A stretch of 60,142 nt of DNA, counting the filler, from Globobulimina sp. (taxonomy: Eukaryota): assembly GCA_003354225.1 (NCBI GenBank). It is 9 parts of 9 records of this genome, joined end to end, with 100 filler letters (N's around TTAATTAATTAA, not from the genome) between each part and the next. Parts side by side here need not be neighbours in the genome. Positions count along the whole stretch, not along the records: positions 26,813 to 33,408 come from PIVH01000269.1; 8 more parts are not named here. The stretch is one strand, 5' to 3'. The notes beneath the pieces are model-generated. The model saw only the letters and a list, made by a program, of their open reading frames with translations, made no database searches and had not been told where the DNA came from. The translations under genes were made by a program, and so were the position numbers. How positions within the stretch are numbered: position 1 is the first letter of the stretch; each line of letters starts with the position of its first letter. This document shows positions 24,179-37,294 of the stretch, piece by piece.

Positions 24179-24386
24179 TGGTCTTTTGGCAAATACAGGC
24201 CACATTTATATTCACTCAAAGCTAAAGCATTTTGACTGTCAAATCAGCTTAAACATTTAAAATGTTAATCAATATTCTTTTAACGATGACATGAGATGAA
24301 CTGGTTCTACTAAAAAAAATATACCTACATAATTCAGTATTCTCATTCTAGGTAACTCGGATTGAAACCTTTTTTTTGGATCTGTA

Positions 24387-25541
24387 ATGGAACCGTCATG
24401 TTCAACGGCTGAATTGCAGAGTGAAGGAGCTCAGCAAGAATGCAGAAATTCGATTTTGGCTGATCAACTGGCAAAACAAATTATTTTAAAGGCAAAGGCA
24501 AAAACCACACTTATTTTGCCTACCATCCCCTATGTGGTAGAAAGTAATTTCTGTCGTAAATGTAAAAAGACTGTAAAGAATTTGGCAAACCATCTTGGAA
24601 ACTTTCACAAACATGCTACTACTGATTGTGGACACTGCTATAAAGTTATGAAAAGAACTAGTTTAAAACTTCATACTAACAGATTTCATAAAGGCAAGGA
24701 GCCAAAAACTTCCCCTCCCCCCATGATATGTTATTACTGTAACACTTATATTGATGAATTAAACAATCATACTAACAGACTTCATAAAGGCAAGGAGCCA
24801 AAATTTACCCCTCGGTTGGCTTGTTATTACTGTAACATTCCTTTCAATGATGTACGTGAGACTGCTGACATATATACTCAACATTTCAATGCTCATGTGA
24901 CCTACTGTTCCAAAAACTTATTCAACAAAGAAACATTACAATGCTGTGGACTAGTGTTCAGCAATCATGATAAGTGAAAACTTCATATAGAGACTGTTCA
25001 CCGACAACCCCAATGCATTGACCAAACAGAAATGGCAAGTGAAGAGGCAGTAAAGGAGTTCCTTGAGAATAAGTGTTTGCCAACATCACTATTTGTCAAC
25101 AAACCGGTAAATACATTTGACAAACCACTAGATACAACAGAAACTTTGTGCAGTGTGAATTTCCGAATAAGCGAATACGGACTACAATTGTCAAGGGCAG
25201 GACTTCCATTTTCCGTGTTAAAGAACGTTGTACAACACATAATAGATACCAAATGTTCAACAGACCGGGGCTCGTCGTCGTCAGATTGGGGGGTGAGCCG
25301 AAACTCACCGGGACTTAGTAGGCCGCAGTGGGCCCATTGTCCCCAACAAGTGCCCCATACAGACCCGGGCTATTGCACAGTATGTATCAGCTGCGCGGCT
25401 GTTGAGGCTGATGATTTCCGCTTCCTGTTAGAACCCGACGTTGAACTTGACCTGTATGCAGTAGGCTTTGGACCCATATTTGAATCTGGAAATATGTTAA
25501 AGATTATGAATAAACCAATACAAATTGATATATATGGATAA
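24387..25541 (+). pseudogene. C2H2 zinc-finger gene with premature stop, degenerating downstream
   Basis: Four C2H2-type fingers (e.g. CRKC..HLGNFH, CGHC..HTNRFH) plus a fifth, CCGLVFSNHDK*KLHIETVH, broken by TGA 24975-24977 at the conserved Leu position; the same frame continues into ORF 25032-25541. Confidence 0.6.
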
Positions 25542-26812: not shown

Positions 26813-27603
26813 TTGCATACATTAATACATATTTTATCATGCAATAAATGAACAATCATATAACTGCCACTAAAATTCTCTCTGCCGGTGATTGTGTAGG
26901 TATTTCCTGCTAAAATGACGCCAAAATGAAAATGTGTACGATAACCATCCTTTCCTTTAAAGCTAATCCTCGAAACTGCGACATGGACCGAAGAGCCTCT
27001 TAACCCGAAATTCAATGTATAGCCATTATTTGGGAATTTCATTACAATCGAACTTGGTGAGACTATGGCGTCCTTTGCTCTCTTCTTTAGTGCAATATAC
27101 ACATTTTTTTCATATTTACAATCTGTTTCTGCAAATCCAACAGAATAATCAACGGACGAATGAGCCACAGACACATATTTCTGAGCAAATTCATAAACAT
27201 GGTTTTCTGATGGAACGTCACGTATTGTAAATGTAGAAAATCCTGACAGTAATGCTGATAATCCCCGGGGTGAAATATAATCAGCTGATGTTGTTGCAAT
27301 GCGTTTCTTTTTTTCATAACAACCGGAACAATAACCACGGTTCCTCCAAACAGTACCACTAATTTTCCACGTATCCCAGTCAATTACACCGTAAACATTA
27401 TAACATCCAGATGCTAAACATCCTAATTTGACAACGTTACCTGACCAACTGACAGAAGGAAGACTTTCACCACAACACGAATGACAATACCCTCGATGGA
27501 CTGTGATTGTCCCAGCTTGTTCCCAATCAGACCAGGTGATCCTGCTATAGGTTGTGTTACAATCTACACAATCAAGCCCAACGTACGAATCTTTATTTCC
27601 CAT
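26813..27603 (-). CDS. Uncharacterised protein with N-myristoylation-like start and two tandem Cys/Trp zinc-ribbon-like repeats; 3' truncated
   Basis: MGNKDS start; repeats CVDC..ITWSDWEQAGTITVHRGYCHSC and CLASGC..IDWDTWKISGTVWRNRGYCSGC. Confidence 0.6.
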
Positions 27604-27720
27604 GATTATTTTTTACGATTTTCAGTTTAAACACTAAAGATTTTGACGCTCAGCTTTTGTTTCTATTTGTATTTGGTGGAAACATTAAGCGTCCACAATT
27701 AGAAAATAAAAGCGATAAAA

Positions 27721-30700
27721 ATGAATATCCGCGATATATCAACAAATGTGTTAAGTGTTTCTGTCATTAATTGTTTGTGTGCTAATTATAAAAACAAAAT
27801 GTAATCAAAACAGTATTGGACCAGATCGGATGATGAGAAATTGGAACAATTGATTGATAGAACAGTATTACAAGTATTAAACTCGCGGAGTGTCAAAGCT
27901 TTGTGGAATAAACAGAGCCACGTTGAAAAGTTATACGATGACAAAACATTTCGATTGTTTGTGGATGCCATTTATGAGGGAATTGATGGGCAGACATTTA
28001 TAAACAGCGCACTTTACACATTGTATAAACATCAAATCGACCAATCTTTGAATAAAACCAAACCCGAAAAAAAGAAGAAATTGAGCACAGACAAACAGAT
28101 ATTTAATCAAATGCAATGTGTGGAATTTATTGAGTTTGATACGGACCGGTCCGGTTCCATTGATTTCAGTGAATTTACGCAATATTTCCACACAAAAAAT
28201 ATACAAATCGGCAAACAGAAACTGCATAAAATGTTTCGTGACATTAAAACCGACAAAGACAGTGAGGGAATAAATAAAAGTGATTTTAATAAATGGAAGG
28301 AATCCTTGCAAAATAATTGCATATCAACGCCCAAAATAAAACAGAAACGAACATTAAGTATTTCTGGATTGAATGTGGTCGGACTATGGATTGTTTGGTT
28401 CAAACCTCATTCCAAAATATATTATTTCAACGAAGGCGTTGGACTGAAAAGCTTTGCTCAAAAAAGAAGGGTTATAACAACAATACATTACAATGAGGAG
28501 GCAGACGCTGACAATAATTTTAAATGGGCGCGATTTGTGACCAAAACAAAAGATATGAAGCATAGATTAGGCGCAGATTTTCGACGGAACCATGCCAATT
28601 TAAGCAAGGCGAAACCAAAGGGATATTGGCATATTGTGGAGAATGATGATAATAATGAAATAATACCGAAAAGGGATTTGGATTTAATATTTATGTTATT
28701 GCATTATTACTATTTATCACATATCGAGGAGCAGAATACCGCGCTGTTTGGTGGTAATGACGATCCATTGAGGAAACATTTGATATCTCATCAGCAGAGA
28801 GTACGCGATGAAGAGTCATCCATTGAACACGACACGTTAAGAGATACAAACGCAAATAAAGCATATTCATTGTTGATTGGTGGTGATAATGGAAAGGGAT
28901 TAAAACGCATAGAAATGGGCAATAAAATTATATTTCAAATCAAACAAAATAAATATCGACTAAAGTACTGGAATAAGAGAGGAAAGTATGTCACCACAGC
29001 TTTGGTATTAGAAAAATTGGAACATAAATCAAAAAGGCATCATTCCACCAGAAAGGAGATAAAAGCAAAGGAGTTATGTTATTTGAGATTTAATACAGAT
29101 TTTGAGGTCAAACAGCTCGAATGGCAGTGGTTTGATAATGACACAAATTCGTATATGGATTATGACAAAAAGCAACGGGTAATCCAGGAGTTGGAAGCTA
29201 GCTTTTTAGGGAATGATGAACGCAATTTCAACCCAAAAGAATTTGAATTATTAAATAATTGTTTATTGCCAGAATTAAAAAGTTATATGGTTGAAAATAA
29301 TATTTCGCCGAAGGATGGTTATATATTTAGCATTGAGTTTGCTTCGGGTATTCATGACAGAAAAATAGCTTCGATGTCTCAAGTCTCATTTGATAGATAT
29401 GACTCATTTGCGAGGAAAATCAGACGAATGACAGACGGAACAGATTCGTTATTGACACATTATCAAAATTCAAATATGTTTTCTGATCAATGGAAGGCTG
29501 CACGCAAATTATTGACAAAAGCTCAACAAAAATATTTCTTTTCATATATTGTGGCCATTGCCGCGAAAATAAAATATATTGATATTGAGTTTGCGAATCA
29601 AACCGTATTACTGCCATCGGGGAGTAATGAGAGTGGCAAAAAAACACAGGATTTTATGAATATCGATGCGAGAGATGTTGAAATTGAACAAAGTAATTAC
29701 AGTGATTACGACGGATACTTAATACCTCAGGACAGATACTTTGAGAATCCAAATAAAACAAAAACGAAAATATTAAGGAAATATAAGATAACAAATAAAA
29801 GAGAATATCGATGGTTTCAAGATGGTGAGGGACGAAAAATATTATTTTCCAAAGAACAGGCACAGTTTTTGCGGTTTGCGGAGTGTATAAGGTATGGTGT
29901 TTCTGTATTTATTATATATAAAACAAAGTTATTACATTGGATGTTTAAAGGAAATATGTGTTGGAGAGTGAATTGGGCGACACATTAAATACATTGTGGC
30001 CATGGTATCAAAATAGTTATCATTCCATTCCAAATGTTGATGACTCCTCAAAATATAATAACTTAATGAAGAATCAATTTTTTTTGCAATCATGGGATGA
30101 AGAACGAATATTAACCATTTTGTACCAACATAAGAAAAACTTGAAACAAATAGCTGAGCGAGATCCAGATGGCAATGATGACAATGATTCGCCCATTCGG
30201 CATAAAAGGAAATTTGCAGCATATCTCTTGTTGGACAGTTCAGACGTTTTGAGAAATTTAAATATATTAAAGGCACAATTGGATCCTTTGTTGCATTGCA
30301 TTTCAGATAAAGCAATCTCCAAATATTTAGATGAACATTTCGAAGCATCTGGATATGAGCGAGAAATATATAAAATTATCTACAAACAACAAGTTAAGAA
30401 ACATCCGGCCGATTTTCAACACAAAATTGACAAATATGTATCGGAATGCATTCGGGGCAAAGCCAGAGATTCCAAAACAAAGGAGTTTTGGCAGCAAAAT
30501 ATACAAGAAATAAAAAAAAGAAAAATACGCAAAAGAAAAAGAAAATGATGAAAATTTTAAGTTTGAAGAAGGACATTTATTATTTAATGAACATTTCGAC
30601 AATATTCAATATTTAGATATTGATAGATTTCAACTGCCAATCTTTGAAGAATTTGTTCGTTTCTTCTTTGTGGCATCGGATGAAAATCGGTATAGAAGAA

Positions 30701-33408
30701 TTCATGAAAGCAAGCCTTCAGACAAATATTATGGAGGAGATGGGAAGGAATATTATCGGGTTTTTCTTGAAGAATGGCGGAATACTCCCAAATGGTATAC
30801 TTATTCTCATGACATATTATTATTGGAATTGGTTTTACGAAATGGCGTGAATGGCAGTAAAATTGTGCAGGATTTGGAAGGTGCCAAAGACGTGGAATAT
30901 AAAATAAGATTAAAATGCGAGGATTACTTTACGAGACAAGAGAACCACAGCAATATATATCATAAACATCAGCATGACGGAGATCGGTATTATCAGTTTA
31001 AAAAATGGTGCAAAATACAATATAATTTGTGGCATCGATTGAAATATATAACAAATATAATTATAAAGAATCTATTTGCTCGCGGCGGTGACATATCTTT
31101 ATACAAAGTGCGGATTGAAAACGAAGAGGATATTCCAACATTTAGTTGTAAGAGTAGGATATTTTCAGATTATCAGAAACAAACTCATATTAATTCTGTC
31201 AAACAGCAGAATAAATTACAAACAGTGGAACCACACAAAAACGATTATGATCGAGCGCAGAAATTTGATGTTAATAAAGATGAAAAAACTCACAACAAAC
31301 AATCAAATCCCTCAAATTATTGCTGCTGTAAATGTGTATGTTGTTGCTGTCATATTGAAAACTATCAAAATCTGGAGACTTTTAATGGTGATGACACTGA
31401 CGATGATGAAGAGGTGGTGCATATATTGAAAAATAAACGTAATTTATGCCAACTTACGAGACGGTCCGCCACTGCGCTTGGGAGAGAAGGGAGAATCCGA
31501 GCCAATGATCCTTTTCTTGATCGAAATCTGGATATTGAATTGATGGAAGTGTTGCAGTCATTTGATTTGTTAAAATATGGGGAACCAATGATTTTATTTA
31601 TCATTGAACAATTAAAGAAACAGATGATTCAAACATATTGGAAGATATTGGGTGCCATCGTTAATGTGTTACCGCCGCAATTAGCAATTTCTGCATTGAA
31701 GAATGAAGAATCAATGGACATATTACGCCATGGCGAGCCATCCAAACTGAAACAGCTATGTTTAGAGTTAGTCTCTGGTGCCAGTTTCAAGCCCGCCGCC
31801 GCCTTGGCAGCAGCAGCATTATTTGACGAGTTGGCTGAGGATGATTTAATTCAGGAAGATTCGTGGAAAACCTATGGCGATGATTTTGAAGCCATGGCCT
31901 TTCAGGAAATCAATAAAATCGAATCAAACCATTTGTTATATGTGTTGCTAAACATTCCATTGCTGAGTAATGAGAGGAAATCGTTGGTGGAGTTGGCTTT
32001 GGATGGACAACGCATAGAATTTCTGAATAATGATCGAATAAACAGTGTGATGCACCATATGTTCGTTCATGGCTACTTGCAGCCCGGCGAAGAAATTGAA
32101 ACTACAGAATTGGAATATGTTGACATGTTATACCAACTTTGGAACTATCCATTTGATTTTTATCTAAGCGCCAGAGGCTACCATTGGATCACCAATATTT
32201 TATTCATGTTATATTTTGTCTTGGTTTGTGTTTACGCCTTTTTGCGTCCAATGCAAGCGGGTGACTTAACGCATCCGTCTCAGTATTTCATTGAAATTCT
32301 ATTTTGGATTTGTAACGGAGGCTATGTCTTATTCGAATGTTTCGAGCTTTGGGAGAAAGGCCCTGCCACTTATTTCAATTTGGATGTCAAAGGTATTTTA
32401 TTTTTATTTCGTTTGTGATTTTTGTTTTATTTATCTCGAATTTAAAAAAAAAGGACAAACCAATCTTTTAGATACTGCATTATGCGCATTGTGGATATTT
32501 TTGTTTTTGACCAGAGCTTATTTTGTGTGTTGTTATGAAGATTATGATGAGTTTGATGTGAAACGACAGACTGCGTTGCAAGAAGTGTATATATTTGTAT
32601 TTGGTTTACAGATTACTTTATTGACATTGCGGTCTTTGACATTATTCTCAAATGCAAAATATTTGGGCGTCCTGCTGAAGATCATCAAATTAATGACAGT
32701 TGAAATTGTGCGCTTTTTATATGTTTATGTTGTTGTAATGGTTGGAATATTATTTGCTTTGTGGTTTGTGGTAGTATCGAATGTATGCAACACATCCTAC
32801 TCAGAAGATGGTCAATTGCCAGAGTCATGCGACGATTATCAAGTTTACAGCGCCTGGTTTGGCTTAAAATATGTATTCGAAGTGTTTGTAGGTACAGGCG
32901 ATTTGAGCGGCGTTGGGGAGCAGCCAATGGGCATAATATTTATGGTCGCTGTCACATTTTTTGGCACATTGATATTAACTAAGTTTGGTTTGTATACACA
33001 TGGCAAATATGAATAAATAATATATATAAATAATTATGACAGTTTACTGATTGCTTTGATGACAACCAAATACGAAGAAGTTCAAAGCAAAGCAAAAGCT
33101 GAAGTCATTTTCAATGCAACCGAGTTGACAGTTGATTTAACATCGCGTAGTCGACAAATGCCACCGCCTATAAACATCATCGTGACTGCACTATCATTAA
33201 CTATTCATATCTTGAATTTTTTCACTGCTTTGCTACATCCACAGATATTAAATATTTACAATTATATCGATTTCAGCACCTTTGAGAAATTCAGAAGGTT
33301 TCATATGTGGCGGTGTGCAGTGTCGTGGAAGAAAGCTGGCAAAGTTGAATTGGATAAAGAGGGTCAACAGAAATTAAAATCAAATTACAAATATACCAGG
33401 AAAAAAAT
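27721..33408 (+). CDS. TRP-type cation channel with N-terminal EF-hands and WWE-like domains; one frameshift; 3' truncated
   Basis: Introns 29892..29950, 32393..32453 and 32983..33042 (and probably 27748..27813) restore frame. EF-hand DTDRSGSIDFSEF. Six-TM region with pore-like VFEVFVGTGD, S6 LILTNLLIALMTTKYEEV and post-S6 MPPPINII as in TRPC/TRPM channels. One extra base in the A-run at 30512-30519. Confidence 0.75.
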
Positions 33409-33965: not shown

Positions 33966-36900
33966 ATGCATTCTAACATTCCATACAGAAACATACAATC
34001 ATCAATAAACGGCGATGATGTGAATACAAAAGTCGTATCTTCATTGGATAATATTTACACCAAAGAGCAAACCAAAGAAAAAGCTGATAAAAACAAATGG
34101 TGTTGTTTTCATATCAAATTGCCGATTACTGGCAAATTAGAAAAAAAAACCTTAACATTGATTGTAATTACATTACTCATCGACGCATTGGCTAATTTAT
34201 CCTTATTTTGTACAACTCACAAATGGTGGTTTTTCAATGGCCATCCTTTGAATTATTTAACATTCCATGACCTATACAATGATTTCACTTCATTCCATTC
34301 AGGTTAACTTCATATAATCCTTGCACAGCTTACACCACATAAACACATAAAAAAACACACCGAACAGGTACTTCTGATACAATCTTATTATGGATATTAC
34401 GTTTATTCTCGTTATTTATCTTAAGTTGCATTGCCATATCAAAAGGCGCACCGCCTGAATTATGGACAGATGAACAAAATTGTTGCTGTATATTTTCATG
34501 CTGTAAATCAAAACACAAACACAAACACAACAACAGTCGACGCAAAAACAGACGCAATACCGACAGCTCAGTACAAAAATTACTATCAAATGAGAATGAC
34601 ACTGATCCAATGCGGTTATCTTCAAATATTGGCATTAAAAACGGCACTGACAACAACAATGCATATGAGATTGAATTAGAAGAAGAGATTGAAGGCATTG
34701 AAGATAAACGTAGCTTACAGCCTAAATTTGATAATAAAAATGATTTGGATTCGTATCAAAAACGCACTCAGAAATGCGTAGCATACAAATACGCCCTCTT
34801 ACTGTTAATGTTTTTGCTTTGCACAGCATTTCAAGGCTATATCGGCGTAAAATGCGTAACCTTCGACTTCCTATCCAATGACCAACCATTCCATTATGAA
34901 ACTGTCCAAGCCATACTATACGGTCTCAGTGTATTATGCATCAACATTGAAATCTTTTTATTCAAAAACTTCGTAGACGCGGCAACAGATTTAGGCGATC
35001 ATATTCTGGTAAAAACATTACATCCGCACCCATTAAAACAGCGCAAAAAAATCAAGTTTTGGTGTAATTTATGTCGGTCCAGAGCCAAATACTGCACTTA
35101 TCGATGCGATGATTGTTCCTTTGATGTCTGCTCATCCTGTTATAAAAAGGAAAAAAAGAAATTAAAACTCAAACAAACTCAGAAACAAAGCTCCATGAAA
35201 CACGGTGGTAAGTTAGCAATGTCCATCAAATTGGATGCCGCGTCAGAGTCATACAAGTACGACAACAGTAAGGTTGCTCCAGAAAATGACCCAACACAAC
35301 GGTTGCAGCAAGACATGACCTCAACTGCTTATATGATGCGAGCGCTGTCGTTATGCAAACCACATTCAACATTGATACTGACTGCGTTTACATGTTTGGC
35401 CATCAACTCCACCGCCAACTTATTGCTCCCACAATCGCAAGGAATGATATTGGATAAGATTGTGAACCATGAAAAGTCTGAATTTATTTACCAGATCAAA
35501 TTTTTTCTAACCCTGTCCGTCATCGTAGGCTTATTCGGCTCTATACGCAATTTGTGTTTTGCCTTCACGATGCGACGGCTGATGGTGTCCATTCGTTCCT
35601 TATTATTCAGCAATATCATCGTGCAGAATATTCAATTTTTCGACGATATGAGTACTGGAGAACTGATCAGCAGAATGACCAACGATGTCGGCGGCATGTT
35701 GTCGCCGTTACGCACCATGCTACAAACTACATTATCGAATATAATCTTATTATTTGGCGGCTTGATAATGTGTTTTGTGACCTCGTGGAGGCTGTCAATG
35801 TTGGCGTTTACCACCGTGGCGCCGGTTTTATTTTTAACGGGGCAGTATGCGAAATGGAGCAAGAATATCAACCGTGCGATTTGGGCAGCGTTTGGGTCCT
35901 CGACGCAAATCGCAACGCAAGCTTTCAGCAATATTCGTACAGTGCGCGCTTTTGGTACAGAACGGAAAGAGATCGGTAATTATGATAATGCGTTGCAAGA
36001 GATCTTAGAGCGGGGTCTGATAAATGCAATTGCGTCGACTGCCACCTTTGCATTGACCAATTACTTGGATTTGGGCGCTGGAGTATTGATATTATACTTC
36101 GGCGGTGTTTCTATTTTTGATGCGGACAAAAGTAATTATGAACTGACTATTGGCAAATTAATAACTTTCCAGTTATATTGGAATATGATCAACAATGCAT
36201 ACAAGGGATTGCAGAATGTATTGACCTCATTCACGCGCGGCGCCGGTGCAGCGCAGCGAGTGCTGACTTTGTTGGATCATATCGGCAACAAACAACATAA
36301 CTTATACTCCGGTTTGGAAGCCAAGGATGCTGCGGTTGGTTTAGATGGCAATATTTATATTGAAAATGTGCATTTTCATTATAAATCGCGGCCAGACACG
36401 GAAGTGTTGACTGGCATCAACTTGCATATCAAACCTGGGCAAGTTATAGCATTGGTGGGGCGAAGTGGCGGTGGCAAGTCAACGTTGATTCATCTGCTGA
36501 TGCGATTTTATGACGTGACGAAAGGAGCAATATTATACAACAAAGAGAGATTGCCGTTGAATGAGATGAATTTGACGAAGTTGCGCCAGAATATTGGCCT
36601 CGTCGCGCAAGACACGCAGTTGTTTGATTGCACGATCAGAGAGAATATAGTCTATGGCTGTGCTGACCGGGAAGATGATGATATCGCATTGGAGGAAATT
36701 GTCCATTACAGTAAGTTGGCAAATTGTGACGAATTTATTTCCAAATTCGAAGAAGGGTATTTGACGCGTGTCGGTGAGCGAGGTATTCGGCTAAGCGGCG
36801 GACAGAAACAGCGGATCGCCATCGCGAGGATGTTGATGAAACGGCCGCGTGTATTGTTTTTGGACGAAGCGACGTCGAATTTAGACACGGAATCGGAGGC

Positions 36901-37294
36901 ATTGGTACAGGCAGCAATTGATAAAACAATATGGTACGATAAGGATAGGGATGATGAGAAGTATGAGGATAATAATAAACAGTATAAGTTTAAAGCAAAT
37001 GCAGTTATTTTAGTGGCGCATCGATTGAGTACAGTGATAAATGCAGACAAAATAGCTGTTATTGATGGTGGTAAGATTGTCGAGTTTGGGAATCACGAGG
37101 AATTGTTAACTATTCGTAATGGTGTTTATCATAAATTGGTTGAAAGGCAAATACAAAGAGAAGAAAATCAATTGGATCAAGATAAAGAAGAAGAGACAGA
37201 CACAAAAAAGAACGATTCAAAAAGTAAAAAGAAAAAGAATAAAATTAAAGTTGCGTCTGATAATATTGATAGTTTGTTTGATAATAACGATTGA
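33966..37294 (+). CDS. ABC transporter subfamily B half-transporter (TAP/ABCB9-like) with N-terminal TM extension and Zn-finger insertion
   Basis: Intron 34303..34367 joins ORF 33924-34307 to 34610-37294. TMD with FFDDMSTGELISRMTND; Walker A GRSGGGKST, signature LSGGQKQR, Walker B VLFLDEAT, H-loop VAHRL. Confidence 0.92.

Follow-up and report, generated by a model that had tools for sequence, protein, structure and literature searches.

Gene structure

The window analysed here, a stretch of 60,142 nucleotides from Globobulimina sp. (assembly GCA_003354225.1; 70 Mb in 48,370 contigs), consists of contigs of about 6.6 kb strung together with N spacers. One of them, G000:C269 (window 26813–33408), carries a single spliced gene whose product, about 2,150 amino acids long, is a six-helix channel subunit of TRP type with an EF-hand pair and one WWE-like domain in its N-terminal part. 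The gene retains four calcium ligands between S2 and S3 and four ligand residues in the WWE-like domain, and its structure and domain order are given below, with reference to contigs of the runs X1 to X4 and to a relative, P0001.

27671–27749 (+): 3' end of exon 1; frame starts at 27672, matching P0001 residues 81–104
27750–27813 (+): intron 1, GT..AG, 64 nt; spliced out in X2 and X3 contigs
27814–29891 (+): exon 2; N-terminal helical module, EF-hand pair, two unnamed conserved modules, WWE-like domain and post-WWE modules
28111–28311 (+): EF-hand pair; loop 1 canonical (28138–28173), loop 2 degenerate; Pfam EF-hand E 4e-5 to 4e-3, under the curated cut-offs
28507–29103 (+): two unnamed conserved modules (A and B) that accompany the WWE-like domain, non-channel proteins included
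29113–29436 (+): WWE-like domain with inserts; W439 (29128), Y503 (29320), Q523 (29380) and R534 (29413) align with HUWE1 W1619, Y1658, Q1667 and R1676
29803–29872 (+): second WWE of an earlier note; start of a conserved family helix, not WWE by profile comparison
29892–29950 (+): intron 2, GT..AG, 59 nt; spliced out in X2, X3 and X4
29951–32392 (+): exon 3, with a one-base frame break inside; helical module, SANT-like segment, Cys-rich linker, linker-helix/pre-S1 region, S1–S2
30512–30519 (+): A8 run with the one-base frame break; a straight reading hits a stop at 30546–30548
30787–31080 (+): conserved helical segment, a family motif, with a SANT/SLIDE-like first helix
31492–32187 (+): linker-helix/pre-S1 region, related to the TRPC linker domain and the TRPM pre-S1 segment
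32188–33061 (+): S1–S6 membrane domain, across introns 3 and 4; filter G-T-G-D at 32891–32902; Ion_trans on P0001 at E 3.6e-9
32335–32473 (+): S2–S3 calcium site, E (32335), E (32344), N (32462) and D (32471), matching TRPC5 E418, E421, N436 and D439
32393–32453 (+): intron 3, GT..AG, 61 nt; spliced out in X2, X3 and X4
32983–33042 (+): intron 4, GT..AG, 60 nt; spliced out in X2, X3 and X4
33043–33408 (+): exon 5, truncated where the contig stops (33408); last part of S6, degenerate TRP box (33098–33121), P-P-P-x-N motif (33158–33181)

Introns 2, 3 and 4 are absent from contigs of X2, X3 and X4, and intron 1 from those of X2 and X3 only; the X1 contigs retain all four introns and behave like DNA. 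The intron-skipping contigs come from two studies, and the skipped introns are the only basis on which X2 to X4 are taken as RNA.

Both ends of the gene lie off the contig. The 5' part of the first exon (about 95 acidic residues and the start codon) is located on G000:C38521, which overlaps the window by 69 nt at 98.6%. Several run contigs end at 27633–27671, and contigs of X1 and X3 run upstream into different letters, which are found on G000:C38521; this points to a probable assembly chimera at the join near 27670. Since the true upstream sequence of the channel gene sits on G000:C38521, its head-to-head layout with a minus-strand gene is probably artefactual. The start at 27721 given in the earlier note had to be replaced, as that ATG is out of frame and the coding frame runs from 27672 across the spliced intron 1. 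At the other end, G000:C45130 and C43899 match the C-terminus of P0001 at 59% and 74% identity and likely carry the C-terminus of the gene; we infer their linkage, as they share no overlap with the window.

Frame break and integrity of the gene

A 1,829-residue model of the window, with X at the break, is collinear with residues 82–1914 of a single 2146-residue protein, P0001 (57.7% identity), which agrees with the one transcription unit assumed by the earlier note. The break and the foreign sequence 5' of 27671 might mean that the window carries a dead allele or a pseudogene, or that two separate genes are involved. The DNA-like run X1 has the same frame break, with identical letters at the A8 run and a 1825-nt contig that crosses it ungapped; 30515–30603 is bridged by none of the spliced contigs listed (136 further pieces lie outside that list); and the upstream join differs from the gene's own 5' end, all of which speaks for a damaged or divided gene. 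Against this stand the X2 spliced-run contig, which diverges after 30514, just inside the A run, with 22 letters unaligned, the splicing of both halves, the likeness of the 5' join to an assembly chimera, and the relatives and a paralog on C2541, which are open across the break. Furthermore, 28 of 37 coding differences are synonymous (40 of the 70 run-versus-window differences were examined), downstream of the break 10 of 11, against a crude synonymous expectation of 19% that ignores transition bias.

Because the differences are mostly synonymous on both sides and the relatives and the C2541 paralog are open at the break, we read the locus as one gene under purifying selection, present here as a copy with an error or as a null allele; a dead copy or two genes would be very improbable. 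A search of the assembly for a second allele of this region found none, and a null allele in one individual would leave the family-level finding unchanged. An intron at 30400–30700 was rejected, as the listed contigs show no joint there and the sequence is coding-like and collinear with relatives.

Channel domain and calcium site

The TRP-like membrane region proposed earlier is borne out by PDB and Pfam matches of P0001 and of the family profile to TRP channels. The best PDB matches are TRPC5/TRPC4, with E 3e-14 for P0001 and 2e-32 for the profile. The 27-row family profile ranks TRPC4/5 first, followed by the Chlamydomonas channel, TRPC6, TRPM8, TRPM2 and YVC1, and its alignment spans residues 219–680 of TRPC4 and 578–1025 of TRPM8. 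With a six-helix membrane domain and a linker-helix/pre-S1 region, the protein is assigned by sequence to the TRP superfamily (group 1 type); its placement among TRP families rests on search scores, since the tree of 21 membrane domains has no outgroup.

The S2–S3 calcium site, overlooked by the earlier note, is intact in the window. Counting only those of the 27 rows that have a residue at the position, its four ligands are conserved in 21/22, 21/22 (E or Q), 23/24 and 25/25. According to the available text of PMC7987348, the corresponding TRPC5 residues bind the activating calcium, and their mutation abolishes calcium activation. The site is the firmest mechanistic clue at the locus.

No ankyrin family was matched in Pfam scans of the window frames, P0001–P0004 and 30 further relatives. 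MHR1/2 (LSDAT_euk) gave no match in the Pfam scans of the relatives, and a search of the own genome for it was blank with a silent control; nor did the relatives match NUDT9-H/NUDIX, the full-length ones ending about 300–500 residues past S6. As no ankyrin, LSDAT or NUDIX family was matched, the predicted channel is neither TRPC nor TRPM2. The C-terminal H-x-x-C and C-x-x-C motifs are conserved in 26/27, 26/27, 26/26 and 26/26 rows, which suggests a zinc site.

By sequence, the membrane and linker region is closest to TRPC4/TRPC5 (PDB 8wpl, 5z96, 7d4p, 9g4y), with which it has in common the S2–S3 calcium ligands, the S4 Arg, L-I-A-x-M in S6 and P-P-P-x-N after the TRP helix. The family differs from these channels in lacking an ankyrin-repeat match, in its pore-helix motif and TRP box, which are not TRPC5-like, in an N-terminal cytosolic part that runs to about 1,500 residues and includes EF-hands, a WWE-like domain and unnamed modules, and in the C-terminal H-x-x-C and C-x-x-C motif with a hydrophobic tail. 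The calcium site is likewise shared with TRPM2 (6mix, human; 8sr7, choanoflagellate chanzyme; 6co7, sea anemone), whose membrane domain is related (E 1e-19 to 7e-23). Outside animals, TRP channels with cytosolic domains specific to their lineage are known from Chlamydomonas (6pw4, E 7e-29) and yeast (YVC1/TRPY1, 6whg, E 2e-19), and choanoflagellate TRPW (bioRxiv 10.64898/2026.06.15.732144) is likened to them by its description in the available text, not by sequence; neither WD40 nor another N-terminal family shared with these three was detected in the window family.

EF-hands and N-terminal modules

The canonical EF-hand and degenerate partner of the earlier note are both present. Loop 1 has 12 residues, with ligands at positions 1, 3, 5, 9 and 12 and Gly at 6; loop 2, degenerate in the window, is nearer canonical in P0002 and P0004. 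The ESM Atlas returned EF-hand clusters at under 0.9. Only 4 of the 8 long channel chains that extend to this region carry EF-hands, which makes them the weaker candidate for the calcium sensor; the best-supported one is the membrane-embedded S2–S3 site shared with TRPC5/TRPM2.

Modules A and B were considered as degenerate WWEs and rejected, scoring 0.1–2% against WWE by HHalign. Further along the N-terminal part, a Cys-rich run (window 31306–31350) in the linker ahead of the pre-S1 region is also found in P0001 and P0002 and could possibly be a palmitoylation or metal site.

The WWE-like domain

The first of two WWE motifs claimed by the earlier note (29113–29200) is confirmed by profile homology, and its C-terminal half, with Y503, M-x-Q523 and R534-x-I-x-R538 (29320–29427; residues are numbered within exon 2), could be added, giving a domain of about 110 residues in which inserts of about 20–25 and about 11 residues precede the C-terminal half. 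Statements on its fold rest on profile comparisons. A canonical WWE profile was built from 17 of the genome's 48 PF02825 matches, and it retrieves DTX1, TRIP12, HUWE1, RNF146, PARP11 and ZAP. Against this profile, the family (74 sequences) scores 94.5% in HHalign (E 8e-8, 64 columns, end to end), the best of 60 column-shuffled controls reaching 1.4%; with 10 sequences, 86.6% is obtained for the N-terminal half only. The canonical-WWE hidden Markov model (HMM) gives at least 10 bits in 33 of 74 family members and in none of 740 shuffles.

The ligand residues are retained in the family at W439 in 64/73, Y503 in 47/78 (F in 21 more), Q523 in 80/89 and R534 in 77/81. The two Trp that name the domain correspond to positions 437 and 447; W437 is kept in 67/73 and the name-giving Glu, E461, in 75/80. 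HUWE1 contacts ADP-ribose through W1619, Y1658, Q1667 and R1676, as described in the available text of PMC11269756, which also connects a preference for ADP-ribose, as opposed to iso-ADP-ribose, with an acidic loop and a Trp in this position, and describes WWE domains as readers on E3 ligases and PARPs. The window domain has both the Trp at 439 and an acidic loop, so in its pocket ADP-ribose or ADP would be preferred to the iso-ADP-ribose unit of poly(ADP-ribose). As the first WWE retains the ADP-binding residues, nucleotide binding by it is plausible, and by analogy the balance tips slightly towards its binding the ADP part of a ligand.

The single WWE of HUWE1/TRIP12 (PDB 8rd7, 9bks) and that of RNF146 (3v3l) align with the window domain at W-x-W, Glu, Tyr, M-x-Q and Arg. 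In its Trp and acidic loop the window domain follows HUWE1/TRIP12. It differs in its inserts, in the second Trp, in the HUWE1 Asn1669 position, which is not kept, and in its fusion partner, a channel in place of an E3 ligase or PARP.

The second WWE of the earlier note was rejected: it scores 0.07% in HHalign against canonical WWE, its first aromatic residue is not conserved, the W-x-W, E, Q, R pattern is not kept, and the family retains only the helix that follows. The SANT-like segment gave no match in a PDB search or in a CHD/SLIDE Pfam search, and comparison with 8 SANT/SLIDE candidates of the own genome yielded weak values (E 0.012–0.11) over the first helix only. Of the 13 proteins that its homolog search brought up, none has a CHD-type Pfam domain, and a PF23078 search of the own genome was blank, but its control was silent too.

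Distribution of the family and partners of the domain

The profile search, with a profile that included C-terminal columns, returned 385 proteins at E ≤ 0.001. The WWE-like domain and channel lie in one chain in 12 of 161 family proteins, most of the others being fragments, and 4 of these 12 also have EF-hands; the module profiles used for this count were cut from the same family proteins. In full-length relatives (Nonionella, Bolivina) the EF-hand, WWE-like and channel parts stand on a single chain; P0001, P0002, P0004 and P0005 have this arrangement. The order is constant: helical module, optional EF pair, modules A and B, WWE-like domain, three more modules, SANT-like segment, linker/pre-S1, S1–S6 and C-terminal module. 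Among 24 proteins looked up and 2 further cluster members, all 19 relatives with a species name come from Nonionella stella or Bolivina argentea, all foraminifera. The pre-S1/S1–S2 part has 31 matches in the own genome. A search for near-length homologs found none.

The same WWE-like module also occurs outside channels. A 1,717-residue non-channel protein (L046:384-5534, on G000:C516) carries it, and P0039 groups with this protein. Its relative P0162 has the module (E 8e-5) and a C-terminal RING finger, possibly as an RNF146/Deltex-like ligase; a RING protein is a usual context for WWE. In P0057 and P0143 the module is fused to astacin-type metalloprotease domains. P0065 and P0075 carry tandem modules and an R..S-T-T..E-x-E motif, which we take to be ADP-ribosyltransferase-like; Pfam and PDB searches gave no support for this. 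Genome-wide, at least 61 PARP-family and at least 48 WWE matches were found, several sharing a contig, which is a large expansion of ADP-ribosylation genes.

Neighbouring sequences

Upstream on the channel contig, a 263-residue Cys-rich open frame (26815–27603, minus strand), truncated by the contig start, has no Pfam match; contig depth over it is 250–2950 in spliced runs versus about 6 in the DNA-like run. At 24366–25541 (plus strand), two open frames in the same frame are split by one stop codon, the first having several C2H2-like Cys/His patterns. Another contig of the window carries at 34343–37294 (plus strand) a half ABC transporter (ABC_membrane and ABC_tran) whose N-terminal part includes a C1 domain rich in Cys and His (PF03107, E 5e-6, over the cut-off).

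Proposed mechanism

Taken from its sequence, the protein likely makes a cation channel that calcium activates and that an adenine nucleotide in the WWE pocket likely regulates as well; the nucleotide could be ADP-ribose, ADP or ATP, either free or protein-attached. To this reading as a whole we give even chances. From TRP-family knowledge, four subunits would probably assemble the cation pore, and cytosolic calcium at the S2–S3 site would probably be required for its opening; this part is held with good confidence. The EF-hands would add a second calcium input confined to one subfamily, for and against which we see equal reason. The WWE pocket would hold the ADP part of the ligand. That such binding opens the pore, with ADP-ribose gating the channel directly, is a tentative suggestion that we consider rather unlikely; binding may instead merely tune or dock the channel.

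Of the convergent channel gated by ADP-ribose and calcium that the earlier note proposed, the single-chain architecture of EF-hand, WWE-like domain and TRP region stands and recurs in foraminiferal relatives; it has one WWE, not two. A number of observations weigh against the mechanism proposed here. The WWE-like domain lies about 900 residues ahead of S1, which leaves its coupling to the gate unexplained. The TRP box is degenerate and without Trp, within a gapless alignment in which E, F and P-P-P-x-N are kept. In the domain itself, the second name-giving Trp is replaced (Y in 54/75, F in 14/75), the position of HUWE1 Asn1669 is Ser, Ala or Thr in the family, and the C-terminal half alone scores just 15% in HHalign. 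The curated PF02825 threshold of Pfam was not reached: the window gave no match, and 1 of 10 members gave E 0.049. A 10-sequence profile of the WWE region found no WWE in PDB, and an ESM Atlas search with this region returned unrelated bacterial clusters. The window keeps all four ligand residues, yet among 8 long channel chains only 4 do so. P0005 retains them together with its EF-hands; the adenine-stacking Trp is missing from P0001, the closest full-length relative (0.5 bits, WWE HMM), and all four residues from P0004.

In one alternative reading, the protein is a TRP-type channel activated by calcium whose WWE-like domain has turned into a structural or protein-docking element within a larger foraminiferal module, without nucleotide binding. 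The company of the two upstream modules, the occurrence on the astacin-type proteases, the inserts, the loss of the second Trp and the erosion of ligand residues in P0001 and P0004 are all consistent with this; the best-kept residues, however, include the ligand-contacting Q523, R534 and W439, beyond what a purely structural role would lead one to expect, and we regard a domain devoid of nucleotide as possible, though on the whole doubtful.

A further alternative is that the pocket reads ATP or ADP instead of ADP-ribose, making the channel a sensor of energy state. For the WWE domains of HUWE1, TRIP12 and DTX1, crystal structures exist with ADP, with ATP or with an ATP analogue, and ADP is proposed as the smallest recognised unit in the available text of PMC11269756; the HUWE1/TRIP12-type Trp and acidic loop of the window domain fit this proposal. 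The canonical WWE partners and the large PARP set in the genome favour ADP-ribose signalling. Moreover, cellular ATP is millimolar, a level at which a micromolar site would saturate. Reading of ATP or ADP rather than ADP-ribose is considered improbable.

Significance for the family

In the literature searched, which left most subscription papers and supplements outside, no WWE on any channel was found, and neither a WWE-bearing TRP channel nor foraminiferal TRP channels are described. The terms WWE, EF-hand, Rhizaria and foraminifer are absent from the available text of a 2026 survey of choanoflagellate TRP channels (10.64898/2026.06.15.732245). The functional analogy with TRPM2, opening by nucleotide and calcium as seen in the accessible descriptions of that channel, is conjectural for the window channel, and the ADP-ribose input, if any, would come through the unrelated WWE fold, in full-length relatives that lack a match to MHR1/2 or NUDT9-H.

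It is conceivable, though we would not expect it, that foraminifera independently evolved channels opened by ADP-ribose and calcium by grafting a WWE reader onto a TRPC-like pore, linking their expanded PARP system to membrane currents. If the pocket binds its ligand and moves the gate, it would be a ligand sensor new to TRP channels and, by convergence, a counterpart of TRPM2, a second solution to the task that TRPM2 performs with MHR1/2 and NUDT9-H. ADP-ribosylation would then be tied to calcium signalling in foraminifera, in which calcium handling bears on shell building and stress survival. Even without gating, the family defines an expanded TRP subfamily whose calcium site is intact and whose unnamed cytosolic modules span about 1,500 residues.

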